Positions 10,539 to 33,916 are shown, numbered from the stretch's first letter. The stretch is DNA of 33,916 bases from an uncultured virus (IMG/VR IMGVR_UViG_3300043464_001377) (IMGVR_UViG_3300043464_001377); one strand, 5' to 3'. Notes: generated from the sequence alone by a model not told the origin. Program-made: numbers and translations.

Positions 10539-11010
10539 CCTTCTGTTCGACATCGCTCCGATCGAGGACGAGGACGGCAAGAAAAAGAAGTCCGCACGAA
10601 AGCGGCAGGCCGAGGAGCCTACGGCCCCCAAGGCCTGGGAGCCGCCGCCTGAGCCGCCCGCAGGGTTCATGCTCTCCATCGAGGGCCACGTCTCGTGCGA
10701 GAAGTGCGGACTGCAAGTCATCGACCTCGTCGAGGTCGTAAAGATCGGCGGCAAGCCGCAGTGGCGAGTCATGTGCGGCTGGTGGTGCATGACGACGTGG
10801 CTCATTGATCCCATTCCGGGCCTGCTCGACGAGGCCGACAAGTCGGCGAAGAAGTTCGTCCTTCGCGAGGGTCGCTTCGCTGGCAAGACGTTCGACGAAG
10901 TCTGGGACTCTGGCAACGAGTGGTACGTTCGCGATCTCGTGAAGATGGCGAAGCGAACGGTCGTGGCCGAAGCGGCGGCCGAGTGGCTGTCGAAAAAAAA
11001 GATTGACTGA
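10525..11010 (+). CDS. Zinc-ribbon protein with G(K/R)(Y/F)xGK-type small domain
   Basis: CEKC...CGWWC; LREGRFAGKTFDEV...WY. Confidence 0.55.
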   Translation: MPANDLLFDIAPIEDEDGKKKKSARKRQAEEPTAPKAWEPPPEPPAGFMLSIEGHVSCEKCGLQVIDLVEVVKIGGKPQWRVMCGWWCMTTWLIDPIPGLLDEADKSAKKFVLREGRFAGKTFDEVWDSGNEWYVRDLVKMAKRTVVAEAAAEWLSKKKID

Positions 11011-11030
11011 ACTGGTTGTACGGATACGCT
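10974..11030 (+). repeat. 57-bp direct repeat copy 1, containing a sigma70-like promoter
   Basis: 55/57 identical to 12250-12306; TTGACT-16 bp-TACGCT. Confidence 0.85.
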
Positions 11031-11062
11031 ACTCCCGCAAAATCGATCTCAAGGAGGGAAAA

Positions 11063-12109
11063 ATGAGCCACAGACTGAATACCGGAGACTGCATTGCTTG
11101 GCTTCGGACTCTGCCAGAATCGAGCGTCCACTGCTGCGTGACTTCGCCGCCGTACTGGGGCCTGCGTGACTACGGACACGACGGACAGTTTGGTCTTGAG
11201 GCCACACCGGAAGCCTACGTCGCCCGCATGGTGGAGGTGTTCCGCGAGGTGCGGCGAGTGCTTCGTGATGATGGGACTTGCTGGGTGAATCTTGGCGACT
11301 CGTACTACGCCGGAGGGTGGGAGTGCAGGAGAGTAAACGCCGTTGGAAATGGAAGTATGCCGCCAGAGCAGAGAAAAAGCGGCATTGCTACCAAGATCGA
11401 CGGACTGAAGGCCAAAGACCTCGTCGGCATCCCATGGCGAGTCGCCTTAGCCTTGCAGGCTGACGGCTGGTGGCTGCGGCAGGACATCATTTGGCACAAG
11501 CCGAACCCGATGCCAGAGAGCGTGCGAGACCGCTGCACGAAAGCGCATGAATACGTTTTCCTGCTCACCAAGAGCGACAAGTATTTCTATGACGCCGATG
11601 CGGTGAGCGAGGCGAGCGTCGAGATGTCTCGTCCGCAGTCAGAGAAGAGGCGATTGCAGCGAATGAACCGAGGCGTTGTCACGGCGGGCCGATTCGGACA
11701 AACAAGCAAGGGCGTCGATTCCGGAGAGGAGCCAACGCATGTGATGCGATCCGGAGAAAGACGCAACCGCCGCTCCGTCTGGACCGTCACGACGAAGCCG
11801 TTCCGAGGAGCGCATTTTGCCGTGATGCCTCCGGACCTAGCCGAGTTGTGCATCAAGGCTGGCACAAGCGAAGAGGGGTGCTGCGATCGGTGCGGCGACC
11901 CGTGGAGCAAAGACAAGAAGTGCCGATGCGAAGGAAGTTCTCCGACGCCATGCACCGTTATGGACCCGTTCGCAGGCTCCGGCACGACGATGGCGGTTGC
12001 CGCAAGTCTTGGCCGCAGCAGTGTGGGGTGCGAACTCAATCCCGAGTACATCAAGATCGCGCAGGCGAGGATCGGTGCTGCCGTCGAAAAGGCCGGGCTT
12101 TTTGCATGA
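11063..12109 (+). CDS. Site-specific DNA methyltransferase, N4-C/N6-A, beta class
   Basis: TSPPYW catalytic motif precedes DPFAGSGTT SAM-binding motif; AAGGAGG SD. Confidence 0.93.
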   Translation: MSHRLNTGDCIAWLRTLPESSVHCCVTSPPYWGLRDYGHDGQFGLEATPEAYVARMVEVFREVRRVLRDDGTCWVNLGDSYYAGGWECRRVNAVGNGSMPPEQRKSGIATKIDGLKAKDLVGIPWRVALALQADGWWLRQDIIWHKPNPMPESVRDRCTKAHEYVFLLTKSDKYFYDADAVSEASVEMSRPQSEKRRLQRMNRGVVTAGRFGQTSKGVDSGEEPTHVMRSGERRNRRSVWTVTTKPFRGAHFAVMPPDLAELCIKAGTSEEGCCDRCGDPWSKDKKCRCEGSSPTPCTVMDPFAGSGTTMAVAASLGRSSVGCELNPEYIKIAQARIGAAVEKAGLFA

Positions 12110-12282
12110 GCATCCTCGAAGAACTCCGCGAAGCACACCCCGAGGCCCTGCTGGCTGACGGGCTCGAAGACGCACTCATCGGCTACACGATCAACACGCA
12201 CGTCGCGGTCTACTCCGCGCAGAAGTGTGTCGAGGTACTCGTGCGGCGAGGCGGCCGAGTGGCTGTCGAAAAAAAGGATTGA
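12106..12282 (+). pseudogene. Truncated paralog of 14490..14747
   Basis: PEALLADGLEDALIGYT..HVAVYSAQKC matches the 14490 ORF, then breaks off at the direct repeat. Confidence 0.7.
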
Positions 12283-12306
12283 CTGAACGGGTTGTACGGA
12301 TACGCT
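12250..12306 (+). repeat. 57-bp direct repeat copy 2, containing a sigma70-like promoter
   Basis: Near-identical to 10974-11030. Confidence 0.85.
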
Positions 12307-12424
12307 TCTTGCCATGTGGCCCTGGAGCAGGAACGCCATTGTCTTGGAACTCCGCAGGATCGCGTTTCGGATGCGCCGTCCCTATGCGGTGCGCATAACC
12401 CTCATCCGAAAGGAAAGTGGATTT

Positions 12425-12718
12425 ATGGCCCTTGTCTATTCAGTCACGGCAGCCCCCGTCGTCGACTCTGACGTTTTCGCTCGCCGCTTGGTCGTTACGG
12501 TAAACGGCGAGAACGTAAGCAGCACTGACCACCCCGCCGAGGTGACGTCGTTCGGCGAAGTGGCCGTGCCGCAGGATTCGCAAGTAGTCCTGACGCTCGT
12601 CGACATTGACGATGCGGGCAACTCTAGCGAGCCGTCGGTTGTCGAGTTCACGGCTACGGACACGATCGCTCCTGCGAAGCCAGGGTCGTTCGGCGTCACT
12701 CTTGTTCGCGAAGAGTAA
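12425..12718 (+). CDS. Small Ig-like/beta-sandwich protein (alternative start 12314)
   Basis: LVDIDDAGNSS...DTIAPAKP is typical of bacterial Ig-like repeats. Confidence 0.55.
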   Translation: MALVYSVTAAPVVDSDVFARRLVVTVNGENVSSTDHPAEVTSFGEVAVPQDSQVVLTLVDIDDAGNSSEPSVVEFTATDTIAPAKPGSFGVTLVREE

Positions 12719-12739
12719 GCCTCTCGCGGGGGGCAAAAA

Positions 12740-13684
12740 ATGATGCACGACATCATTCACGGCGACGCAACGGACGTCCTCTGCGGCATGGATGCCCAGA
12801 GCGTCCATTGCGTTGTCACGAGCCCGCCGTACTACGCCCAGCGGTCGTACCTGGGCGAGACGGACCCGCTCAAGCCGCAGGAGATCGGCCTCAAAGGCGG
12901 CGAGTACATCGCGGACCTCGTGGCCGTGTTCCACGAGGTCAAGCGGGTGCTTCGCGACGACGGCACGCTGTGGCTGAATCTCGGCGACGTCTACGAGAAC
13001 GGCGAACTGCTCGGCCTGCCGTGGATGGTCGCCCGTTTGCTCCAGTCGGACGGCTGGATGCTTCGCCAGGACATCGTGTGGGCCAAGCCGAGCCCGATGC
13101 CCGAGAGCGTCTCTGACCGCTGCACACGGGCCCACGAGTACGTGTTCATGTTCACCAAGTCTCGCGACTACTTCTACGACGCCGAGGCGATCAAAGAAGA
13201 GTCTGGCTCGTCGCCGACGGGCAAGAACCGCCGCAGCGTCTGGCGGATCGCGTCGACGCCGTACGCCGGGGCCCACTTCGCCACGATGCCGACGACCCTG
13301 GCGGAACTGTGCATCCAGGCTGGCACGAGCGAGTACGGTGCCTGCTCGTCCTGCGGGACTCCGTACGAGCGGCAGATCGAGAAGCGGAAGATCACTCGCA
13401 AGCGGCCAAACCAGTACGTGAAGCGAACGGGCTCGAAGGGCACGGGCAACTCGTGCGCCAACACGGTGGCTGGCGTCGAGACCAAGACCATCGGCTGGAG
13501 CCCTGACTGCTCGTGCGTGGCGTGGGTCCAGCCGTGCGTCGTGCTTGATCCGTTCGCCGGAAGCGGCACGACGCTGGCCGTGGCTAAGGAACTTGGCCGC
13601 AGCGGTGTGGGCATCGAACTCAACGCTGAGTACGTGGAGTTGGCGAGGAAGAGGGTAGCCCAGACTTCCGAGAGGATGCCATGA
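12740..13684 (+). CDS. Second DNA methyltransferase, N4-C/N6-A, beta class
   Basis: TSPPYY, LRQDIVWAKP.PMPESV.DRCT, DPFAGSGTT; paralog of 11063. Confidence 0.93.
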   Translation: MMHDIIHGDATDVLCGMDAQSVHCVVTSPPYYAQRSYLGETDPLKPQEIGLKGGEYIADLVAVFHEVKRVLRDDGTLWLNLGDVYENGELLGLPWMVARLLQSDGWMLRQDIVWAKPSPMPESVSDRCTRAHEYVFMFTKSRDYFYDAEAIKEESGSSPTGKNRRSVWRIASTPYAGAHFATMPTTLAELCIQAGTSEYGACSSCGTPYERQIEKRKITRKRPNQYVKRTGSKGTGNSCANTVAGVETKTIGWSPDCSCVAWVQPCVVLDPFAGSGTTLAVAKELGRSGVGIELNAEYVELARKRVAQTSERMP

Positions 13685-13992: not shown

Positions 13993-14493
13993 ATGAACCC
14001 CATCATCACGCTCACACCCTGGGAGTACGAGCGAGCCTTCGCCGTGGGCATCGGCCGCTTCACGGCAAACTGGGGCGTCGGTGACGCTGAGTACTACGAC
14101 CGTAGCCTCATGGAAGAGGACCGAAACGCCCAGCCTGCCGCAGCGATCTGCGAACTCGCCGTTTCCAAGTACACCGGCAAGTACTGGCACGCTGGCGTTT
14201 GGAGCCGTGGAGACCACTCCAAGTACAAGCATCTGGCAGACGTCGGCGACGACATCGAGGTCCGCCGCGTACGGACAAGAAACGCCGTCAAGGTCCGCAG
14301 CAAGGACGCCGGGAAGATCGTGTGGGCCGCCAGGACGGCCGACTCCGAGTACAAGACCGTCGAGATTCTCGGATTCATCTCGGCTGACGAGGTCATCAAG
14401 TCTCTCGTCGGCACGTATCAGTCAGAGAAGTACGTGGAACTCGACTGCCTGTGCCGTCCGTGGATCGGCGTCGATGAGGTGATCTCCGCATGA
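13993..14493 (+). CDS. Phage hypothetical protein, possibly nuclease-like
   Basis: CELAVSK...ADVGDDIEVR pattern; operon position. Confidence 0.55.
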   Translation: MNPIITLTPWEYERAFAVGIGRFTANWGVGDAEYYDRSLMEEDRNAQPAAAICELAVSKYTGKYWHAGVWSRGDHSKYKHLADVGDDIEVRRVRTRNAVKVRSKDAGKIVWAARTADSEYKTVEILGFISADEVIKSLVGTYQSEKYVELDCLCRPWIGVDEVISA

Positions 14494-14747
14494 CCAGCGA
14501 CGACATCATCGAGACCCTGTCGGACCTGAATCCCGAGGCCCTACTCGCCGACGGATTCGAGCAGGCCCTGGTCGGCTACACGGCCAACTACCACCACCCA
14601 CACGTCGCCGTGTACAGCGCGAAGAAGTGCATCGCGATCCTCGTCAAGCGTGACGGCATGACCGAGGACGAGGCCGAGGAGTTCTTCTCCCTCAACACGC
14701 TCGGCGCCTATGTCGGCGAGAGCGGCCCGCTGTTCGCTTGGATGTGA
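14490..14747 (+). CDS. Conserved small phage protein (ADGFE.ALVG family)
   Basis: LADGFEQALVG, VAVYS..KC, EAEEFF..NTLGAYVG. Confidence 0.7.
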   Translation: MTSDDIIETLSDLNPEALLADGFEQALVGYTANYHHPHVAVYSAKKCIAILVKRDGMTEDEAEEFFSLNTLGAYVGESGPLFAWM

Positions 14748-14784
14748 GTCATTCGCGGAGGGGAAACCCGCGAGAGACTGTTTC

Positions 14785-15303
14785 GTGCCTTGGATCGTGT
14801 ACGAGACCCGCTGCTTGGTCAGCGGAAAAATCTACATCGGCGTCCACAAGCAGGACGGCGACGAGTTCGACGGATACCTCGGCAGCGGAACGCTGATCAC
14901 AGCCGCTGTCGAGAAGCACGGACGGGATAACTTCCGTAGACAGACTCTCTTCGCGTTTGAGTCTGAACGAGATGCCTACGCCAAAGAGGCAGAACTCGTG
15001 GGCCGGGAGTGGGTCGATTCGACGTGGACATACAACATCAAAGAGGGCGGCATAGGGGGCGTCGGCTTCTCGATGCCAGAGGAGGCTCGCGAGAAAATCC
15101 GAGAGTACAGAACGGGAAGGCCGCACAGCGAAGAGACGAAGGAGAAGATTCGCCAGCATCGGGCCAAGATCGCGTTTCGCCACACTTCGGAGTCTCGGGC
15201 AAAGATGTCGGCCTCCAGAAAGGGCATTCCCCATTCAGAAGAGCGAAAGCAGAGGATCAGCGATGGCATGAAGCGGTCTTGGCAACTGCGGAGGGCTCCG
15301 TAG
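14785..15303 (+). CDS. GIY-YIG homing endonuclease with NUMOD3 repeats
   Basis: IVY...GKIYIG, YLGSG, YNI..GG; three H(S/T)xEx(K/R)xx(I/M) NUMOD3-like repeats. Confidence 0.88.
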   Translation: MPWIVYETRCLVSGKIYIGVHKQDGDEFDGYLGSGTLITAAVEKHGRDNFRRQTLFAFESERDAYAKEAELVGREWVDSTWTYNIKEGGIGGVGFSMPEEAREKIREYRTGRPHSEETKEKIRQHRAKIAFRHTSESRAKMSASRKGIPHSEERKQRISDGMKRSWQLRRAP

Positions 15304-15305
15304 CC

Positions 15306-15596
15306 ATGCCACTAGAGACAACGATCACCAAGTCCATCGTCAAGTCCGCCAAGGCCAGCGGCTGGTGGACGTTCAAGATCGCCGGAGGTGCGTTCCAGCG
15401 GGCCGGTGTTCCGGACTTGCTCTGCATCAAGGGCGGACGGGCTGTGTTTTTAGAGGTCAAACAGCCTGGCAAGAAGCCGACGCCGCTTCAGCAGCACGTC
15501 ATGCAAGAGATTCGTGAACAAGGCGGCGCAGTTGCCGAAGTTGTCACGAGCAAAGAACAAGCCCAGAAGGTGCTAGACGCAGCATGGGAAGCATAA
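15306..15596 (+). CDS. VRR-NUC domain nuclease
   Basis: LETTI, GVPDL, FLEVKQPGKKPTPLQ. Confidence 0.9.
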   Translation: MPLETTITKSIVKSAKASGWWTFKIAGGAFQRAGVPDLLCIKGGRAVFLEVKQPGKKPTPLQQHVMQEIREQGGAVAEVVTSKEQAQKVLDAAWEA

Positions 15597-15710
15597 CTTC
15601 ACGAAAAAACTGGCCTCCAGAGCCAGAGAAGCCGTCGCCGAAGCCTGTCTACGAGTTGGTTCTCGTGGACGGCGTTTGGCGGAAAGTCCTCAAACCCAAG
15701 GGAAGAAGAG

Positions 15711-15986
15711 ATGATCGCCGCCAGAAGGCCGGAAGACGGTAGCGTGTACCGCGAGTTGCTGATCGTCAACCCAAACGCCCTCGTCGCCAAGGGTATTTCG
15801 GAGGCCTACATCGGCCACTCGTCTGGCGCCAGGCCGGTCGCCGTCTACGACTACGAGACATGCGTCGCAGTTGTCATGGCCGACAAGAGCATGTCCTACG
15901 AGCAGGCCGTTGACTATCTCAGCGAACGCATCGTGCCAGACTTCGTTGGACAAGACTTGCCGATCTTCGTGGTCGCGACGAACTAA
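15711..15986 (+). CDS. Divergent paralog of 14490..14747
   Basis: NPNALVAKGISEAYIG..VAVYD..C..MSYEQAVDY...FVG..PIF aligns to that family. Confidence 0.6.
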   Translation: MIAARRPEDGSVYRELLIVNPNALVAKGISEAYIGHSSGARPVAVYDYETCVAVVMADKSMSYEQAVDYLSERIVPDFVGQDLPIFVVATN

Positions 15987-27218: not shown

Positions 27219-28304
27219 ATGCCAGTCTTCGTCTCGCCCGGCCAGATTTCCGCTTCCGTCTCCGGCAACTCGATCACGGCGAGCGTGTCTGGCGGCAGCG
27301 GCGTGGCTGTGTCCCAGTCCGCAAGCCAGCCCGTGTCGTTTCCGCAGGGAATCCAGACGCCAGCCCCCGTCCAGAGCGTCAACGGCCAGATCGGCAACGT
27401 CGTCATTCCTGTGGCAACCTGGGTGCCTCATAAGCCACCAGGCGTCGCCTGGCTGTCAAGCGTGCTGGACTCTGGCTCGTTCTCTCTTTCGGCTCGCTCG
27501 TCGACAGGGTATGCGGCCGTGCAGTGGTGGGACGGATCGGTGCAGGCGTACGGCGCGGGATCGCCAGGGCAATACATCGCTGCTTCAAAGGCTGTCCTAG
27601 CGTCGGGCTATTGGGCCAAGTCGACCATCAAGCAAGTATTCGTCTGGTCTTGTGCATCTGCCGCGAACGCATCGCAGTCTGGCTCACTTACGGGGCTCTC
27701 CTGCTCTTCAAAGAAAGTCTTTGCTCTCTCGATCGACGGCTGCTCGTCGCTGCTCGAAGTCTCGTGTGACTCGAATCAACTCACGAGCCTGAACCTCACT
27801 GGCTGCACGGCACTCCAGACGATCTCGTGCCACCTAAATAGCCTGACGAGCCTCGACGTCAGCGACGCCACGCCCCTCACGAGCCTGTACTGCCAGGGCA
27901 ACTCCCTGCGAGGCCTGGACGTGACGAGAAACACAGCCCTGCAAGTCCTGTCATGCAGCACAAATCTCCTCGCGGCCCTTGACCTCTCGCAGAACTCGGC
28001 CCTGGTTGGCCTGTACTGCTTTGGCAACCAACTAACAACGCTAGACATTCGCAACAAGCCTGCCCTGCGAGACGTGATCGCATCGAGCAACTCCATTTCG
28101 CTCGTGCGGGCAGCGGGAGTCGCCGCGTCTGGCGTGGCGGGCATGAACGTCGCGTCAAATCAACTCAACGCCGCGTCTCTGAACTCGCTATACACCGACC
28201 TCGCGTCAGTCCAGTCAGGCGTGATCTATGTCTCGGGCAACCCCGGCGTGGCTGGAGACAATCCGGCGATCGCCACCGCGAAGGGATACACGGTCAATGG
28301 CTGA
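27219..28304 (+). CDS. Leucine-rich-repeat virion-associated protein
   Basis: About 6 tandem 21-aa LxxLxCxxNxLTxLD(V/L) repeats; VQSVNGQIGNV tail-fibre-like motif. Confidence 0.8.
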   Translation: MPVFVSPGQISASVSGNSITASVSGGSGVAVSQSASQPVSFPQGIQTPAPVQSVNGQIGNVVIPVATWVPHKPPGVAWLSSVLDSGSFSLSARSSTGYAAVQWWDGSVQAYGAGSPGQYIAASKAVLASGYWAKSTIKQVFVWSCASAANASQSGSLTGLSCSSKKVFALSIDGCSSLLEVSCDSNQLTSLNLTGCTALQTISCHLNSLTSLDVSDATPLTSLYCQGNSLRGLDVTRNTALQVLSCSTNLLAALDLSQNSALVGLYCFGNQLTTLDIRNKPALRDVIASSNSISLVRAAGVAASGVAGMNVASNQLNAASLNSLYTDLASVQSGVIYVSGNPGVAGDNPAIATAKGYTVNG

Positions 28305-28833
28305 CTTCTATCGCACCGTGGGCAAGCACAGCGTCCTGACGTCAGTGCCGGAACTGGCCGGGCAACTCGGGAACAATTTAGAGCCGAGCCCAAGCGGCCT
28401 GCCGGTGGCTGTATTCGGCGAGGGGCACCGAGACCTGGGCTCGCTGGCCGTGGGCACGGCTGTCTTTTGGTGGCCCAACCACGCCCAGGAACTGTCTTCG
28501 CTGCTGGGCCTAGACTTGCAGCCCTCAAGTCTTCCGCAAGTCCCTGGCGTCCTGCCTGGATTCATCGTCGACGAGGCTGACTTTGCAGTGCCCCAGACCA
28601 TCACGGCCACGCAGATTCGCCTCTGGCTTTTCAGAAATGGCGTGAGCCTGGAGGCTGTCCAGAGTGCGATCGACGCCATCCCAGACGAGGCGGCTCGCGG
28701 CGAGACTCGCATCCAGTGGGAGTATGCGCCCTACGTAGAGCGGAGCCATCCATTCATCAACGCCCTCGGCCAGAGTCTTGGGCTGACCAGCGAGCAGATC
28801 GACCAGGCGTTCGTCGAGGCTGCTCGACTGTAG
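28297..28833 (+). CDS. Tail-fibre-associated protein
   Basis: ITATQIRLWL, WEYA.YVER.HP, LGLTSEQIDQAF motifs typical of genes next to tail fibres. Confidence 0.6.
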   Translation: MADFYRTVGKHSVLTSVPELAGQLGNNLEPSPSGLPVAVFGEGHRDLGSLAVGTAVFWWPNHAQELSSLLGLDLQPSSLPQVPGVLPGFIVDEADFAVPQTITATQIRLWLFRNGVSLEAVQSAIDAIPDEAARGETRIQWEYAPYVERSHPFINALGQSLGLTSEQIDQAFVEAARL

Positions 28834-28845
28834 GCGAAAATCTCG

Positions 28846-28873
28846 TTGCGTGCGATTTTGCGACCGCTACGAT
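28846..28873 (+). promoter_or_regulatory. Sigma70-like promoter upstream of the small-ORF/cassette region
   Basis: TTGCGT-16 bp-TACGAT; ATG 8 nt downstream (leaderless-like); GCGACC/GGTCGC inverted repeat brackets the -10. Confidence 0.5.
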
Positions 28874-28881
28874 CGGGTCGC

Positions 28882-29355
28882 ATGAGCAACTGGATTCCCA
28901 CCGGCGAGCGACTTCCAGTCGAGACTGGCTGGGTGCTGGTCACCGTCGAGACTGACGGGCGTCGCGAAGTTGGCATCGCCAGGGCGATCAACAAGCAGAT
29001 CGGCCTCGACTCGCCAGACATGGCCCCGCGTGTCACGCACTGGATGCCGCTGCCGGAGCCCGCGAAAAACTGCGTGGCTGGATTGGTCTTGTGCGTCGCC
29101 GTGCTGGTCGGGTGCGCCGCGCCGAATCCCGCAGCCTTCAAGTCCTACACCGTGACGGTCACGAGGCCGGATGGCGTTGTCCACCGGACTCTGCAAATCC
29201 AAAGCACAGAACATCCAAGAGTCGAGTCGTTCGACGACGAAGGCGGGTGCCTGCGGGTGCTGTACTGGAATGGTTCCTTCGATCGCTACAGCACGCAGCC
29301 ATTTCCGTCGGGGTGGCTCGTCGAGGTCGAGCCGAACGCGGAGGCGAGCAGATGA
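28882..29355 (+). CDS. DUF551-domain protein fused to a lipoprotein-like segment
   Basis: WIPTGERLP...VTHWMPLPEP followed by LVLCVAVLVGC. Confidence 0.65.
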   Translation: MSNWIPTGERLPVETGWVLVTVETDGRREVGIARAINKQIGLDSPDMAPRVTHWMPLPEPAKNCVAGLVLCVAVLVGCAAPNPAAFKSYTVTVTRPDGVVHRTLQIQSTEHPRVESFDDEGGCLRVLYWNGSFDRYSTQPFPSGWLVEVEPNAEASR

Positions 29356-29543
29356 GCGACGACACCTCGTGGATGGACGGGCCTGTGCTGGTCGATCCTC
29401 CGAGCGGCTGGAGGTGGGGATTCCCAAAACTCTGGGATCGCAAGACGCCGTGCCGGGAGTGGCTGGTCGCCAATGGGTATCCAGAGCATCTGGCGAATCA
29501 AGACTTGCCGTGCCGGTTCATTCAGCCGGAGCGAGAGGATTGA
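29352..29543 (+). CDS. Small phage protein
   Basis: VDPPSGWRWGFPK...WLVANGYP; ATGA coupling. Confidence 0.65.
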   Translation: MSDDTSWMDGPVLVDPPSGWRWGFPKLWDRKTPCREWLVANGYPEHLANQDLPCRFIQPERED

Positions 29544-29837
29544 ATGCACGTCATCGACAAAGCAGCCTATGAAGGCGACATCGTCTCTCGGCTCAGGAAC
29601 TGGCGAGGGCTGCACCTCGCTCACAGCGGGGAGTTGTTCGAGGAGGCGGCCGACGAAATTGAAAAGATTCGCGCCTACAGAGACGAAGCCGAGGATGCGG
29701 CGTCGATAGCGAACCTGGCGGCACTCAGCCTGCGGCTGACCGACGATGAGTGGGGGGCGATTGCATACTATGTCGGCACTGGCGGGCCTCGTGGTGTAGA
29801 CGCCACGCTCCGCTCACTGCTGGAGCGAACGAAATGA
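29544..29837 (+). CDS. Small phage protein (DIV.RLR/EAADEIE motif) with LTxxE...LLERT tail
   Basis: GDIVSRLR, EAADEIE, RLTDDEW...TLRSLLERTK. Confidence 0.65.
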   Translation: MHVIDKAAYEGDIVSRLRNWRGLHLAHSGELFEEAADEIEKIRAYRDEAEDAASIANLAALSLRLTDDEWGAIAYYVGTGGPRGVDATLRSLLERTK

Positions 29838-30013
29838 GCCTGGACAAGGCTATCGAACACGGCAAGGAGAAACGGAAGGGCTATCACAAATCCGCCGCCG
29901 TTGACCGCACATGCCGACCCGGAGGCACATGCCCGTATTGCTCTAGGGGCAGGCGGCACAAGAACAAAAAGCGAGCGGCAGCGGCGAAGGACAAGGAGAG
30001 TGACTGTGGCTGA
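29834..30013 (+). CDS. Small basic Cys-containing phage protein
   Basis: MSLDKAIEHGKEKRK..DRTCRPGGTCPYC. Confidence 0.6.
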   Translation: MSLDKAIEHGKEKRKGYHKSAAVDRTCRPGGTCPYCSRGRRHKNKKRAAAAKDKESDCG

Positions 30014-30236
30014 AGAACAGAATCCGGTGGCGTGGGCGGCGGTCGCCAAGAATGACGCCGCCGACTGGCTGCGGCACGCGATCGCCGCCGACCGCATCAG
30101 GATCGCGCAACTGGAGTCAGAGATCGAGCGCCTGCGGCTCACCTTCGAGGAGCGGCAGGCGATGATGCGCGCGATGTATCGGGTTGTTGGCGCCGACTCC
30201 GAAATACTCTGGTCGCTGCTGGAGCGGACGAGGTGA
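30006..30236 (+). CDS. Small phage protein (PVAW motif, LTxEER tail)
   Basis: AAGGAG SD before GTG; stop codon lies in the attC core TGAGAAC. Confidence 0.65.
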   Translation: MAEEQNPVAWAAVAKNDAADWLRHAIAADRIRIAQLESEIERLRLTFEERQAMMRAMYRVVGADSEILWSLLERTR

Positions 30237-30323
30237 GAACGACAAGGATCAGGAGCGGCGAGACATGAACACTGACAACACGCAGGACGGTGCCGAGCCG
30301 TCTCCTGCATCCGCTGGTTCTGC
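30234..30323 (-). other. attC site A (type 1, 90 bp)
   Basis: Minus strand: AGAAC-CAGCG-GATGCAGG...CCTGATC-CTTGTC-GTTCTCA. Confidence 0.85.
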
Positions 30324-30552
30324 CACGCTCACTGTGGACGACGTTGCGTTGCTCTACGACGAATGGAAGCGGCGATACTGCGGCCCGCGAGACATGGTGA
30401 TTCTGGTGCGGAGGCCAATGTGGAAACGAGTGCTTTCCGTCCCGTGGATGTGGTGGTCGCACTTCGGACTGGCTTGCCAATACACGGGCATTTTTCAATC
30501 CGCAAGGCTGGCAACGCTCTTCGTCTGGGCGTTCCTTACGGCTCGCAAGTAG
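30265..30552 (+). CDS. Cassette protein starting inside attC A
   Basis: AGGAG-9 nt-ATG within the attC; N-terminus MNTDNTQDGAEPSPASAGS; hydrophobic C-terminus. Confidence 0.6.
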   Translation: MNTDNTQDGAEPSPASAGSATLTVDDVALLYDEWKRRYCGPRDMVILVRRPMWKRVLSVPWMWWSHFGLACQYTGIFQSARLATLFVWAFLTARK

Positions 30553-30554
30553 TG

Positions 30555-30644
30555 GTAGAACGCCAGCGATCAGCGGCCCGCGACCTATGACCATGAACAA
30601 ACCAACCGACGATCTCGCGGGTCCGCTGCATCGCGTGGTTCTCA
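30555..30644 (-). other. attC site B (type 2, 90 bp)
   Basis: + strand AAC-GCCAG-CGATCAGCGGCCCGCGA...TCGCGGG(T)CCGCTG(C)ATCG-CGTG-GTT. Confidence 0.85.
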
Positions 30645-30805
30645 CTGGTCGGCAGCGAGAGGCAATCATGTATTGCATCGCGTGTGCGCAGGACTTCCGA
30701 GACACTATTGATTCGTTTGAACCTGACGGCGATTTGGCGCGACAAAAGGCCACTGAGAACATTGACATTGCCATAAGGCTCGTTTGGCCGCTCGTTGGCC
30801 CTTAG
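30587..30805 (+). CDS. Cassette protein starting inside attC B
   Basis: ATG in the attC loop; LTGRQREAI motif. Confidence 0.55.
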   Translation: MTMNKPTDDLAGPLHRVVLTGRQREAIMYCIACAQDFRDTIDSFEPDGDLARQKATENIDIAIRLVWPLVGP

Positions 30806-30821
30806 CAGACGAAGGACGAAA

Positions 30822-30974
30822 ATGAACAGAGAACCGATGTGGCTGTCAGTTCTGGTGTTTCCCATGAGAGCGGCCTTCGTAGTTATGGGGCTGTCGATGG
30901 TGGCGGCATTTTTAGTCGCGCCTTGGGTCTTGATTGCTTGGGCCGCAGGCTGTTGGTGCGGATGGTGTAAGTGA
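30822..30974 (+). CDS. 50-aa hydrophobic membrane peptide
   Basis: AAGGA SD; MNREPMWLSVLVF...WCGWCK; stop in the TGAGAAC core. Confidence 0.55.
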   Translation: MNREPMWLSVLVFPMRAAFVVMGLSMVAAFLVAPWVLIAWAAGCWCGWCK

Positions 30975-31006
30975 GAACCAGTGTTTCTCAACGTAAAGGA
31001 GTTTGC

Positions 31007-31588
31007 ATGACGACTTTTGGGTTTTTCCTGTCTGCGGCCACGCTGGCTCTTGGGCTGCTTCTTGGCTACATCGTTTTTGGGATGAGACCGAAGCCTGCGC
31101 AAGATGACTACGCTGATTGTTTGATTCACCCCGAGACAACGCCGCAGGTCAAGTGGGTGAAAATGACGCGGCCTACGAGGGACGCGATCATCGACATCTA
31201 CGCGGCCAACATGGACGAGTGCAAGAAGTTCATGGAGGCAAACGACCGCGTTACGACTGGCGAGGCGGCGATACTGTGGCTCATGGAAAAGGCGAAGCGA
31301 CAACACCGGCGATCAGCGGCCCGCGACCGCTGCATCGCGTGGTTCTCAAAAGCAAAGGAGACAGGCATGAGTGATCTTGTGCCGCCGATGATGCCTGACG
31401 ATCTGGATGCGCTCATCCAGGCGATGGAGCGAGTGCAGCAGTTAGAGGCGGAGGTGGAAAAGTTGCGGCTCACCGGCGAGGAGCGGGAGGCGATTGCGTG
31501 GTTTTCGGTCTACTCCGACACGCCAGGAGAGGAGCGGCACGCGGCCGTGCTGGAGACACTGATTGCACGGTTGGATTGTGACCGATGA
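31007..31588 (+). CDS. Fused ORF reading through attC C; second start at 31367
   Basis: AAAGGAG SD before both ATG 31007 and in-frame ATG 31367. Confidence 0.55.
   Translation: MTTFGFFLSAATLALGLLLGYIVFGMRPKPAQDDYADCLIHPETTPQVKWVKMTRPTRDAIIDIYAANMDECKKFMEANDRVTTGEAAILWLMEKAKRQHRRSAARDRCIAWFSKAKETGMSDLVPPMMPDDLDALIQAMERVQQLEAEVEKLRLTGEEREAIAWFSVYSDTPGEERHAAVLETLIARLDCDR
31298..31348 (-). other. attC site C (short type 2, 51 bp)
   Basis: AAC-ACCGG-CGATCAGCGG-CCCGCGA-CCGCTG(C)ATCG-CGTG-GTTCTCA. Confidence 0.75.
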
Positions 31589-31659
31589 TCAGCGATAACC
31601 GCGAAAATAGGCGGCGATCATCACTGACCACAGAGAGCAGCCCGAGAAAGGACGTTGAT

Positions 31660-31896
31660 ATGACACAGAACGAACTGGCCGAACGGCTGCGAGACATGAG
31701 CGACGCGCTCAACATTTGCGGTGCCGATTACAGTGACGTTTTGCTGGACGCGGCGAGAGAACTGGACCGCAGGAGTTGGATTCCGCAGCCCACGCTCACC
31801 GACGAGGAGCGGGAGGCGTTGCGCGGGATGCTTCCGACGATCATGTACGAACCGCACAGGAAGGCGATTGAGTCGATACTGGCACGGCTTGGTTGA
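31660..31896 (+). CDS. Cassette protein with PTLTDEERE tail
   Basis: AAAGGA SD; LAERLR..DAAREL; stop in the attC D core. Confidence 0.65.
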   Translation: MTQNELAERLRDMSDALNICGADYSDVLLDAARELDRRSWIPQPTLTDEEREALRGMLPTIMYEPHRKAIESILARLG

Positions 31897-31983
31897 GAAC
31901 ACGCAGGATCAGGAGCGGCGAACAATGAGCGATGACAACACGCAGGACGGTGCCGAGCCGTCTCCTGCATCGGCTGGTTCTCA
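31894..31983 (-). other. attC site D (type 1, 90 bp)
   Basis: Near-identical to A and H; encodes 20-aa peptide MSDDNTQDGAEPSPASAGSH (31925-31987). Confidence 0.85.
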
Positions 31984-32005
31984 CTGACAGAAACAAGGAG
32001 TTGAA

Positions 32006-32221
32006 ATGCCGAAGTGCATCATCGGTCCCAATGGAGTGGCTCACGGCCCAATGTGCAAGGACGGTCGCTTGTGCGGTTTTCGCGGAAACCAACTAGAGAG
32101 CGACCGCAAGTCGCAGCCCACGCTCACCGACGAGGAGCGGCAGGTGATATTTCGCGCGATGTATCGGGCTGCCGGCGCCGACTCCGCAATACTCTGGTCG
32201 CTGCTGGAGCGGACGAGGTGA
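32006..32221 (+). CDS. Cassette protein with PTLTDEER tail
   Basis: AAGGAG SD; stop in the attC E core. Confidence 0.65.
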   Translation: MPKCIIGPNGVAHGPMCKDGRLCGFRGNQLESDRKSQPTLTDEERQVIFRAMYRAAGADSAILWSLLERTR

Positions 32222-32308
32222 GAACGACAAGGATCAGGAGCGGCGAACAATGAACACTGACAACACGCGGGGCGCGGCCGAGCCGTCTCTTGCATCCGCT
32301 GGTTATGC
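32219..32308 (-). other. attC site E (type 1, 90 bp)
   Basis: AAC-GACAA-GGATCAGGAG-CGGC...GCCG(T)CTCTTG(C)ATCC-GCTG-GTTATGC. Confidence 0.85.
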
Positions 32309-32609
32309 GGTTGGCGATGTGATGGCGTTTCAGTGCGGGTTGCGTGGCGAATCATGGGAACTGCACAAAATCACCCGCATTACCGAGAAGGGGCTGATGA
32401 CTTGTGGCCCGTACCAGATAGACGCGCACCTGCGAGTCAGGGGGCGAACGGGCTATTCCGGGCCGATTTGCAGAGGCAGGCCGACGCCTAAAATCATGGC
32501 AGAAGTTCAGCGGCAAAGGGCTATTGCCATTATCAAGGCGACGAACTGGAGCAGCGTGCCGCTGGACAACCTTTTGGGTGTGATAGCGGTGCTGGAACAA
32601 GACGCATAA
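32250..32609 (+). CDS. Cassette protein starting inside attC E
   Basis: N-terminus MNTDNTRGAAEPSLASAG; stop TAA in the attC F core. Confidence 0.65.
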   Translation: MNTDNTRGAAEPSLASAGYAVGDVMAFQCGLRGESWELHKITRITEKGLMTCGPYQIDAHLRVRGRTGYSGPICRGRPTPKIMAEVQRQRAIAIIKATNWSSVPLDNLLGVIAVLEQDA

Positions 32610-32692
32610 CGCCAGCGATCAGCGGCATCGAACACAGGAGCAACCATGACAAACGATGTAGATGAGATGTCTGCTGCATCGCGTGGTTCTCG
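32604..32692 (-). other. attC site F (type 2, 89 bp)
   Basis: AAC-GCCAG-CGATCAGCGGCATC...GATG(T)CTGCTG(C)ATCG-CGTG-GTT; AGGAG and ATG in the loop. Confidence 0.85.
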
Positions 32693-32894
32693 CATGGTCG
32701 GCTCCGCTCCCGTCGAACGCCTTGGTGCCACCAAGGTCACTGACGTAGGCGAGTCGGGGCTGGCTTTGGCGAGCGAGGAAAGGAATGCCATCGTCGAAGT
32801 GCTTGAATGTTGGCGGCGATCTTCCGCGATACAGCAGCAACTGCCAGAGTGGAGCGTTGTTTCGCTTTGCTCACTGCTGTGGAGGACGAGGTGA
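32646..32894 (+). CDS. Cassette protein starting inside attC F
   Basis: CAGGAG SD; LASEERNAI...SLLWRTR tail. Confidence 0.6.
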   Translation: MTNDVDEMSAASRGSRMVGSAPVERLGATKVTDVGESGLALASEERNAIVEVLECWRRSSAIQQQLPEWSVVSLCSLLWRTR

Positions 32895-32904
32895 CCGAGG
32901 GGAG

Positions 32905-32953
32905 CGAGAACGCCAGCGATCAGCGGCTCGTCCGCTGCATCGCGTGGTTATGG
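32905..32953 (-). other. attC site G (minimal type 2, 49 bp)
   Basis: AAC-GCCAG-CGATCAGCGG-CTCGT-CCGCTG(C)ATCG-CGTG-GTT. Confidence 0.8.
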
Positions 32954-32981
32954 CCGGGCGAGGACAACATGAGGACGCGAG

Positions 32982-33185
32982 ATGCGATGGAAGATGATCG
33001 ACAGGCCAGCCGACGGGAACGAGGTGAGCCAGTGGTTCGCGTTCTGGCCCGTCACTGTCAAAGGCGAAACCCGGTGGCTGGAATGGGTGGCTGTGGAGTA
33101 TCGAATCGTCATCGCGGGTTACTCCGACGCTCTGAAAGTGAGGCCCGGCAAGATTCACAAGCACGCGGTGCGGTTCATTTCATAG
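32982..33185 (+). CDS. Cassette protein (WFAFWPV...RWLEWV)
   Basis: Fills cassette G; aromatic motif seen in small phage proteins. Confidence 0.6.
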   Translation: MRWKMIDRPADGNEVSQWFAFWPVTVKGETRWLEWVAVEYRIVIAGYSDALKVRPGKIHKHAVRFIS

Positions 33186-33275
33186 CCATAACACGCAGGA
33201 TCAGGAGCGGCGAACAATGAGCGATGACAACACGCAGGACGGTGCCGAGCCGTCTCCTGCATCCGCTGGTTCTCG
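33186..33275 (-). other. attC site H (type 1, 90 bp)
   Basis: Body near-identical to D. Confidence 0.85.
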
Positions 33276-33549
33276 CGGGGAGCCAGTCGCGTGGGGCGTC
33301 TTCTACGGTGATGGGAAACTTCACTCATCATGGGACTCGCACGCAAAGGCCGAATGCACGGCGGTGACGATGCGACGGTTCGACCATCTCGGCGTCTATG
33401 TTTCGCCGCTCTACCGCTCGCCCACGCTCACCGACGAGGAGCGGGCGGCCATTGCCGAAGCGGCCGGAGCCTACAACGACAACGATGACGATGAGGAGTG
33501 TGCGAAGATCGCGGCCACGCTTCACAGCCTACTGAAGCGGCTAGGTTGA
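33217..33549 (+). CDS. Cassette protein starting inside attC H (EPVAW...PLY, PTLTDEER tail)
   Basis: MSDDNTQDGAEPSPASAGS N-terminus; stop in the attC I core. Confidence 0.7.
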   Translation: MSDDNTQDGAEPSPASAGSRGEPVAWGVFYGDGKLHSSWDSHAKAECTAVTMRRFDHLGVYVSPLYRSPTLTDEERAAIAEAAGAYNDNDDDEECAKIAATLHSLLKRLG

Positions 33550-33595
33550 GAACGTCAGCGATCAGCGGCTCGTCCGCTGCATCGCGTGGTTCTGT
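33547..33595 (-). other. attC site I (minimal type 2, 49 bp)
   Basis: Body differs from G by one base. Confidence 0.8.
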
Positions 33596-33627
33596 GGTTT
33601 GTTGGATGACACAACAGGAGGATTGAA

Positions 33628-33903
33628 ATGCTCTACAACGCAATCAAGCGGCGAGACAACCTTATCTCAGGTCTGCGCGACTCGCAGGAGTTTTTTTGCA
33701 ATGCCATGAACAGGCAGCATGGCAGCCTCATCGACTGGATGCGGTGGCAGATTGAGAAGCGCGAGACGCGGCTAGACACTATCGGCCTGATCGCAAAGGC
33801 AGGCGGCGAGCCGTTGACCGCAGACGCCGCTAGGACGGCTGGCGAGGTGGCGGCATTCCACGCCGTGCTGGCGTACATCAACAACGGTTGGAAGGCAGAG
33901 TAG
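33628..33903 (+). CDS. Cassette protein, hypothetical
   Basis: AGGAGG SD; fills cassette I. Confidence 0.65.
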   Translation: MLYNAIKRRDNLISGLRDSQEFFCNAMNRQHGSLIDWMRWQIEKRETRLDTIGLIAKAGGEPLTADAARTAGEVAAFHAVLAYINNGWKAE

Positions 33904-33905
33904 TC

Positions 33906-33916
33906 ACAGAACACGC
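33906..33916 (-). other. attC site J, truncated by window end
   Basis: ACAGAAC-ACGC matches the start of D and H; core complements GTTCTGTG at 33589. Confidence 0.65.

Follow-up and report, generated by a model that had tools for sequence, protein, structure and literature searches.

The stretch analysed here, 33,916 nucleotides of DNA from an uncultured virus (IMG/VR IMGVR_UViG_3300043464_001377; hereafter the window, meaning the stretch at its full length), most likely ends in an attC cluster without an integron integrase (CALIN) whose polarity is reversed: in its last 3.7 kb the mobile unit appears to be an attC site together with the gene downstream of it, and the units would be shuffled by a host integron integrase (IntI) acting on the + strand. 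We give this reading a probability of roughly 0.7. The window is a phage fragment, since the genes recognised in it (PHROGs) include helicases, a primase, two DNA methyltransferases, a homing endonuclease and virion proteins. By definition a CALIN holds two or more attC sites, spaced by 4 kb at most, and no nearby intI gene (Ghaly et al., 2021, PMC8352920), and the window holds nine sites with start-to-start distances of 283–743 nt and no intI. The canonical cassette order, a top-strand open reading frame (ORF) followed by its attC site and co-oriented with the Pc promoter, was not found in the phage array, nor was the arrangement of a complete integron, with intI and attI adjoining the array. 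The orientation of cassettes is fixed by the integrase choosing the attC bottom strand, which lets Pc read promoterless genes.

Structure and strand of the hairpins

Nine imperfect hairpins were located within positions 30238–33591, all on the + strand, and a tenth begins at 33910, where it is cut by the window end. Each consists of a 5' box ending in AAC, a 6-nt spacer, GATCAG followed by a variable stem, a loop and the returning stem, and, on the 3' side, an unpaired C, then ATC, a 5-nt spacer, and GTT with the 3' box. The AAC of one arm was paired with the GTT of the other in all nine window copies, and these three pairs were invariant in 11/11 aligned copies. The unpaired C was found on the right arm, at position 16, in 9/9 window copies, and the base 7 nt upstream of it (position 23) was T in 8/9, the copy at 31302–31344 having A; six base pairs separate the unpaired C and T. 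Of three long copies subjected to DNA folding, two (those starting at 30238 and 30559) showed the T as a genuine bulge, the predicted fold of the third (starting at 32608) pairing the T-bearing arm differently; the alignment, together with the 100% paired stem, suggests that it is bulged in all six long copies. In the sole 41-nt copy folded (starting at 32909) the T was within the terminal loop, as it probably is in the copy starting at 33551. In the two long copies that keep the full predicted stem, both unpaired bases (C and T) belong to the 3' arm when + is folded and to the 5' arm when − is folded.

Two types of left arm were distinguished, type A (GATCAGGAGCGGC), with four copies, all of them long, and type B (GATCAGCGGC), with five, two long and three short. 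The length from AAC to GTT was sharply bimodal, 41–43 or 81–83 nt, among 166 regular-expression matches in related viral loci, despite the differing loops of the two types. With 7-nt boxes included, the long copies measure about 89–90 bp, inside the 57–141 bp range published for attC sites.

The hairpins were clearly beyond chance. The 11 aligned copies had compensatory changes in 6 of 13 pairs, and the observed covariation was reached by 0/500 shuffles; one copy in the nearest comparison record, G001 (a viral contig of 31 kb, rated 32% complete), carries a GC to AT change on both arms. A covariance model of the family (R1), run unfiltered over all 33.9 kb, gave only nine matches, all on + and scoring 48.6–94.9 bits, and scored at most 17.7 bits on the reverse strand of the nine sites. 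The arm pattern matched at least 128 viral stretches, and R1 gave 182 matches across 78 viral loci, in none of which hairpins were present on both strands of one locus. Rfam gave no match at the gathering score anywhere in the window.

In the six long copies (81–82 nt) a ribosome-binding site and a start codon lie in the loop and the protein reads through the right arm, the stop codon of the upstream gene is usually inside the 5' box (TGAGAAC, TAGAAC or TAAC), and the left arm of type A contains a Shine–Dalgarno-like GGAG. Hairpins of this kind might act mainly as RNA, as modules for translation initiation or mRNA stability, with the likeness to attC as a relic without a recombination role in the phage. 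The loop ATG of the six long window copies and the GGAG would suit such a role, as would the constant sense-strand placement, the tightly bimodal lengths and the repeated use of the frame through the right arm. We nevertheless consider it improbable: the conserved unpaired features (AAC/GTT, C16, T23 and the 6/5 spacers) are those that the integrase reads on single-stranded DNA, the short copies lack start signals, none of the 10 terminator-like sites in the window coincides with a family hairpin and no T-run terminator follows the hairpins, homology between relatives breaks at the AAC, and the same family is antisense to cassette genes in bacteria. RNA-level and recombination roles could coexist.

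The strand of the hairpins was read against the published definition of attC, in which the bottom strand is the one recombined and carries the AAC triplet, in R', on its 5' arm; the other arm bears the extrahelical bases, near L'', of which the first is at position 16 and usually G and the last is the conserved T at 23/24, with a 6-bp stem between them, spacers of 5–6 nt and a total length of 57–141 bp (Nivina et al., 2016, PMC5027507). Since the phage hairpins present C at 16, T at 23, six base pairs between the two and 6/5 spacers on +, the + strand corresponds to the bottom strand. The same hairpin family flanks integron integrase genes in 6/6 Planctomycetota arrays examined, and the six intI genes comprise four that are intact and above cut-off, a fifth read in two frames and a degraded sixth; the Planctomycetota integron integrases scored 341–485 bits against a cut-off of 265, one of them being confirmed at 469 bits. 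In these six arrays 52 of 53 R1 matches lay on the strand running towards intI, that is, the canonical bottom strand. In bacterial locus L210 a site with the canonical boxes GTCTAAC and GTTAGAC comes after each top-strand ORF, and the bottom strand of the site folds like the phage + strand.

A second model (R2) was built from 19 bacterial sites picked by the canonical box pattern alone and oriented as bottom strands by the position of intI. Run unfiltered on the window, it matched five hairpins of type B, numbered here by type from left to right, with scores of 30.8 (B4), 30.7 (B5), 30.3 (B1), 22.6 (B2) and 13.7 bits (B3), all on +; 4/9 window hairpins were matched at E < 0.001 and 5/9 at E ≤ 1, none of these on −. 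Most single matches in the pattern scan of bacterial genomes were due to chance, with scattered gap lengths, and only arrays were used; a Synechococcus locus (L166) matched the pattern and gave no model match at E ≤ 0.01. By sequence comparison, the phage hairpins are homologues of the attC sites of Planctomycetota chromosomal integrons, and the published definition, the orientation of intI and the bacterial model all support the + strand as the attC bottom strand. IS110-family and DDE_5 transposase genes were also observed inside Planctomycetota cassette arrays (L276 7313–8287 and L270 8397–9470).

All recognisable genes of the window, which has about 61% G+C, are on the + strand (PHROGs). 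After training on nine annotated window genes, a codon-usage model made the right call for 10/10 held-out genes, and among 68 unique inter-hairpin intervals from the window and related viral loci it assigned 59 to the hairpin strand, 9 remaining unclear and none being opposite. In diverged copies + frames were open in 9/9 cases and antisense frames in 2/5. Two bacterial arrays provided 130 ORFs from both strands, seven of them with a Pfam match, and 5/5 of the non-transposase matches were on the top strand. Phage genes therefore lie on the bottom strand and bacterial cassette genes on the opposite, top strand. Strand calls based on G+C at third codon positions were unreliable both in phages (50 vs 22), where the codon model was used instead, and in bacteria (5 vs 3; in a second run 7 vs 6, with 3 unclear), where Pfam matches were used. 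One interval of G001 (L002 2009–2290), lying between hairpins of the usual orientation, has an open frame on the minus strand alone; the encoded 66 aa include two hydrophobic segments, the ORF has its own ribosome-binding site, and the interval is thus a cassette of canonical polarity within a reversed array.

A preliminary description of this DNA, made from the sequence, had proposed that + is the bottom strand while every gene is on +, and this agrees with the published definition, with the intI-adjoining arrays and with R2; the 5/6-nt spacer asymmetry it cited likewise recurred in every window copy, the left spacer having 6 nt and the right one 5. Its statement that an unpaired T and C are always in the right arm was correct for the C and too broad for the T, which is a bulge in the long copies only. 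The left-to-right transcription that it envisaged is consistent with all genes being on +, but its candidate promoter at 28846–28873 was not recovered by a promoter consensus scan, which found 1 site against 1.3 expected by chance.

The unit of exchange and the proposed recombining enzyme

Window cassettes recur singly in many contigs, in other company. For 131 unique phage hairpins, the two flanks and the interior were each compared. The 17 pairs alike in the upstream flank and unlike in the downstream one had a median interior identity of 0.68, against 0.93 for the 22 pairs with the opposite combination. Long and short hairpins were mixed in 8/17 of the former and 0/22 of the latter (Fisher p = 0.0004), and more than one hairpin type occurred in 7/9 clusters sharing the upstream flank, compared with 3/18 clusters sharing the downstream flank (Fisher p = 0.004). 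Similarity ended 0–1 nt after the AAC in 11/17 same-upstream pairs, and 0–6 nt to the left of the AAC in 22/22 same-downstream pairs; breaks at the AAC are exemplified by window position 33190 compared with L056 and L024, and by 30559 compared with G001. Because hairpin type tracks the downstream flank and not the upstream one, the hairpin belongs to the downstream gene, which bears out the unit of attC followed by ORF put forward in the preliminary description. Taken together, these comparisons show that related phages differ by whole units and that homology breaks at the left AAC; judged from the alignments, the main junction is this AAC of the left box, where the integrase would cut the bottom strand. 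That one hairpin type accompanies many unrelated gene bodies is not informative alone. In sedentary integrons, unrelated cassettes generally carry homogeneous attC sites.

The same junctions might be produced by relaxed homologous or microhomology recombination between hairpin arms, with no site-specific enzyme, much as at the promoter and stem-loop repeats of T4-type phages. Many copies have almost identical arms of about 20 nt, junctions occur at both the left and the right box, and one duplication boundary falls in an LTDEERE coding motif (repeat families D2/D4), all of which such a process would explain. We regard it as unlikely, however, because in the 11/17 informative pairs whose similarity ends 0–1 nt past the AAC the spacer already differs, with 3–6 nt shared, and because two equally conserved arms do not predict the asymmetry between 7/9 and 3/18 clusters, an asymmetry that agrees with the point of bottom-strand cleavage.

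The window stretch is present as DNA in lake-water and freshwater metagenome runs, and in four lake-water runs the Logan contigs covering 29800–33916 end at hairpins, no listed piece spanning the array. From one cassette to its neighbour, the summed depth of contigs varies by as much as about twenty-fold (runs X1–X4); in run X1 it was 866.5 in the bin 31732–31869 and 45.4 in bins 30766 to 31317. Depth this uneven is what one would predict if certain cassettes are present in many of the sampled genomes, and is suggestive only, being uncertain from repeats. Joints in these contigs, whose short sides of 21–46 nt lie in repeated arms, were not counted as evidence of excision.

No IntI was found above cut-off in 50 related phage records, ten of which are at least 90% complete, and no integrase was found among the 43 large ORFs of the window. 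Locus L056, which is 99.7% identical to the window over 32605–33912, shows how the array ends: it runs on for five more hairpins and then gives way, without attI or intI, to ordinary genes on the + strand, two ORFs that resemble DUF551 and a phosphoesterase, as judged from their translations. An attI to the right of the window, as the preliminary description had expected, is contradicted by this locus.

The sites could instead be recombined by a phage-encoded Xer-like tyrosine recombinase. PF00589 (Phage_integrase) was found above the Pfam cut-off in 23/50 related records (0/1 for G001, then 3/5 and 20/44), a tyrosine recombinase was present at E ≤ 0.001 in 7/10 records at least 90% complete, and of four recombinases scanned with NCBIfam, all from the set of five records, three gave weak XerC/XerD-like matches and one gave none. 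Yet the recombinase never adjoins the array where coordinates were compared (G008, G009, G011 and G026), none was found in G001 or among the large ORFs of the window, and 3/10 near-complete records lack one; among these three, G042 (92% complete) has four hairpins, the other two having weak or no model matches. The recombinases are more simply explained as ordinary lysogeny integrases, and the hairpins share homology with the sites of arrays that have a true IntI, so that we rate this explanation as slightly less probable still than recombination between the arms.

The reading of the array as a reversed CALIN shuffled by host IntI has several observations weighing against it. Shuffling by IntI is the step that we infer. 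As to the sites themselves, the short copies measure about 49–51 bp with boxes, under the published range; the RYYYAAC and GTTRRRY consensus is kept in 0/9 window hairpins, and only 2/131 unique phage hairpins fit RYYYAAC and only 2/131 fit GTTRRRY; the first extrahelical base is C where G is usual, as it also is in the bacterial relatives; the type A fold is no stabler than that of shuffled sequence (z about 0); and the four type A hairpins had no match to R2. On the bacterial side, the remaining 1 of the 53 R1 matches (28 bits, in L272) lies downstream of intI, a non-canonical place, and matches also occurred in Rokuibacteriota, Latescibacterota and other phyla. Nor is the linkage of hairpin to downstream gene absolute, as 3/18 downstream clusters carry different hairpins. 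Hairpins A1 and A3 share their upstream flank and hairpin and part ways beyond the right GTT, one gene body has three different hairpins before it (L053, L011 and L069), and another has a long hairpin ahead of it in L004 and a short one in L088. These exceptions indicate that exchange at the right box also occurs, less often. Low-level recombination of the top strand is described for some attC sites (Nivina et al., 2016, PMC5027507) and would give junctions of this type; alternatively, they may come from recombination within the conserved arm.

Under the reversed CALIN model, IntI would be provided by the host and not by the phage. During infection it would fold the + strand and cut at AA|C, and would excise, insert and reorder units among co-infecting phages. 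Capture of a phage cassette at a host attI would leave it facing Pc and silent, and a host cassette taken up by a phage would be antisense to phage transcription; as both captures would be antisense, the two pools would share an enzyme and not expression. The published mechanism implies that a cassette with its gene on the recombined strand, once inserted at attI, faces Pc (PMC5027507), in line with the antisense placement that the preliminary description foresaw, and IntI has been described as inserting cassettes outside att sites too (Loot, preprint). The window cassette proteins gave no tblastn match in about 1.5 Mb of bacterial loci and 101 in phage loci, a split that fits separate phage and bacterial pools, in a small sample.

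Cassettes of the array and the rest of the window

The array opens with hairpin A1 (30238–30319, +, 82 nt, long type A, 92.0 bits), which has GGAG in its left arm, a loop ATG at 30265, a bulged T at 30301 and a bulged C at 30308. The ORF starting in its loop (30265–30552, +, 95 aa) had an open + frame in 2/2 diverged copies, and the unit of A1 and this ORF recurs in L053 and G001. Hairpin B1 follows (30559–30640, +, 82 nt, long type B, 84.1 bits; bulged T at 30622, bulged C at 30629), with a loop ATG at 30587 that starts a cassette ORF of 72 aa (30587–30805, +). A membrane-like small ORF of 50 aa (30822–30974, +) has no hairpin of its own and has its stop codon in an orphan TGAGAAC box; this box (30966–30983) has no hairpin behind it, is 94% complementary to the right end of A2 (inverted repeat I9) and may be the scar of a lost site.

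The next open frame (31007–31588, +, 193 aa) runs in frame through hairpin B2 (31302–31344, +, 43 nt, short type B, 48.6 bits), as the 5' box of B2, CGACAAC, has no stop codon; since its halves are separate modules in L112 and L079, it looks like a fusion of two cassettes. An inverted repeat of another kind separates two ORFs at 31575–31632 (GATGATC..CG / CG..GATCATC; loop about 17 nt); it is without AAC/GTT boxes and falls outside the family. A small ORF of 78 aa with an LTDEERE motif (31660–31896, +) has no family hairpin ahead of it. The leader ORF in the loop of A2 (31898–31979, +, long type A, 94.9 bits) stops just past the hairpin, and the cassette ORF downstream (32006–32221, +, 71 aa) has its own ribosome-binding site.

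In A3 (32223–32304, +, long type A, 81.2 bits) the loop ATG at 32250 starts an ORF of 119 aa (32250–32609, +), and in B3 (32608–32688, +, 81 nt, long type B, 79.0 bits) the loop ATG at 32646 starts one of 82 aa (32646–32894, +); the near-identity to L056 begins at about 32605, a few bases ahead of the AAC of B3. Hairpin B4 (32909–32949, +, 41 nt, short type B, 53.7 bits) precedes an ORF of 67 aa (32982–33185, +), the same gene end being followed by different hairpins in L056 and L024. The loop of A4 (33190–33271, +, long type A, 88.2 bits) provides the start, at 33217, of a second ORF with the LTDEERE motif (33217–33549, +, 110 aa). The unit made of B5 (33551–33591, +, 41 nt, short type B, 53.3 bits) and the cassette ORF after it (33628–33903, +, 91 aa) is common to L080, L067, L016, L038 and L116, and the + frame of this ORF was open in 4/4 diverged copies, the antisense frame in 1/4. 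Of the tenth hairpin, of type A, only the left box and first spacer bases (33910–33916, +) fall within the window; L056 has a duplicated gene copy with a box and spacer matching the last bases of the window, and an entire type A hairpin comes after this copy.

The loop of the long hairpins codes for an acidic leader of small size (30265–30321, 31925–31987 and 32646–32690 in the window, and in hairpin clusters), and one leader is joined to many unrelated bodies. The right arm is read in one frame by most types, giving a Ser/Ala/Gly-rich stretch that ends with G-S at the GTT box. The coding motif LT(D/F/G)EER was found in at least six small ORFs between 29731 and 33455 (repeat families D4, D5 and D8), two of which precede the first hairpin; the small genes are therefore partly paralogous, and the motif also contains one duplication boundary (30137 / 32122).

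A blastn search with 28000–33916 gave no GenBank phage match. When small ORFs were scanned with Pfam (16 ORFs) and PHROGs (15 ORFs), the sole match above threshold was DUF551, in an ORF upstream of the array (28882–29355), and the cassette ORFs gave sub-threshold matches only. Elsewhere in the window, a homing-endonuclease-like ORF (14710–15303) is flanked by two ORFs matching the same part of phrog_13182 (14490–15986), and two phrog_67 DNA methyltransferase genes have one small ORF between them (11003–13684).

Implications and comparison with known systems

A widespread phage family that carries the attC type of host integrons, with genes on the recombined strand, breaks the orientation rule of cassettes. 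It would imply a second, phage-side cassette economy running on a host enzyme, and would offer a testable case of two gene pools that share recombination and are separate in expression. Natural attC sites with translation starts are also of interest for recombination engineering based on attC structure. A broader proposal, which we put forward tentatively and with the odds somewhat against it, is that phages of integron-bearing freshwater bacteria keep a large pool of reversed cassettes that uses the host integrase and is insulated in expression from host integrons. Fast shuffling would follow from having the recombinogenic strand coincide with the G-rich coding strand, which is probably the lagging-strand template, cassettes crossing between the pools would land antisense and silent, and the loops would serve as portable translation starts and leader peptides. 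The strand matched by the hairpin model had a positive GC skew in 49/49 phage loci of at least 4 kb, as it does in the window itself.

Clusters of attC sites without an integrase have been described in virulent phages, where IntI1 recombined 5/6 of the phage attC sites tested, bottom strands better than top strands (Qi et al., 2023, PMC9892861). The array described here resembles those in having attC-type hairpins between small genes in phage genomes without intI. In contrast, the TJE1 and PH101 cassettes of that study are 'in the same direction', as in bacterial arrays, and the parts of the article drawn on here report no reversed polarity, whereas the present family, whose members were found in at least 128 viral stretches, has bottom-strand genes throughout. 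In the literature searched, no description of reversed gene-to-attC polarity in phage arrays was found.

The closest sites are those of Planctomycetota integrons (Cury et al., 2016, PMC4889954; Ghaly et al., 2021, PMC8352920), which share the core GATCAGCGG ... T-CCGCTG-C-ATC with the phage sites. On the bottom strand, both sets also show bulging of the C and the T, and their spacers are 6/5. The Planctomycetota sites lie beside intI, have RYYYAAC/GTTRRRY boxes, measure 57–61 nt and follow genes on the top strand, whereas the phage sites have TGAGAAC/GTTCTCA boxes, measure 41–43 or 81–83 nt, serve bottom-strand genes, often contain a start codon in the loop and are not accompanied by intI. Compared with canonical attC sites (PMC5027507), the phage sites agree in the AAC on the 5' arm of the recombined strand, the extrahelical bases at 16 and 23, the 6-bp stem, the spacers of 5–6 nt and the variable terminal structure, and differ in that the first extrahelical base is C instead of G and the gene is on the recombined strand.

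Repeats combining a promoter and a stem-loop are found between small early genes of T4-type phages, where they bound shuffled modules at places in which relatives differ in gene content. Unlike those repeats, the hairpins of the window have no promoter consensus tied to them, and their asymmetric unpaired bases, their AAC/GTT and their homology to IntI sites are specific to attC. Phage CALINs as such had already been published; what the present analysis adds to them is the anchoring of the family to intI-adjacent arrays, the test of strand with a bacterial model and the test of linkage between the hairpin and its flanks.

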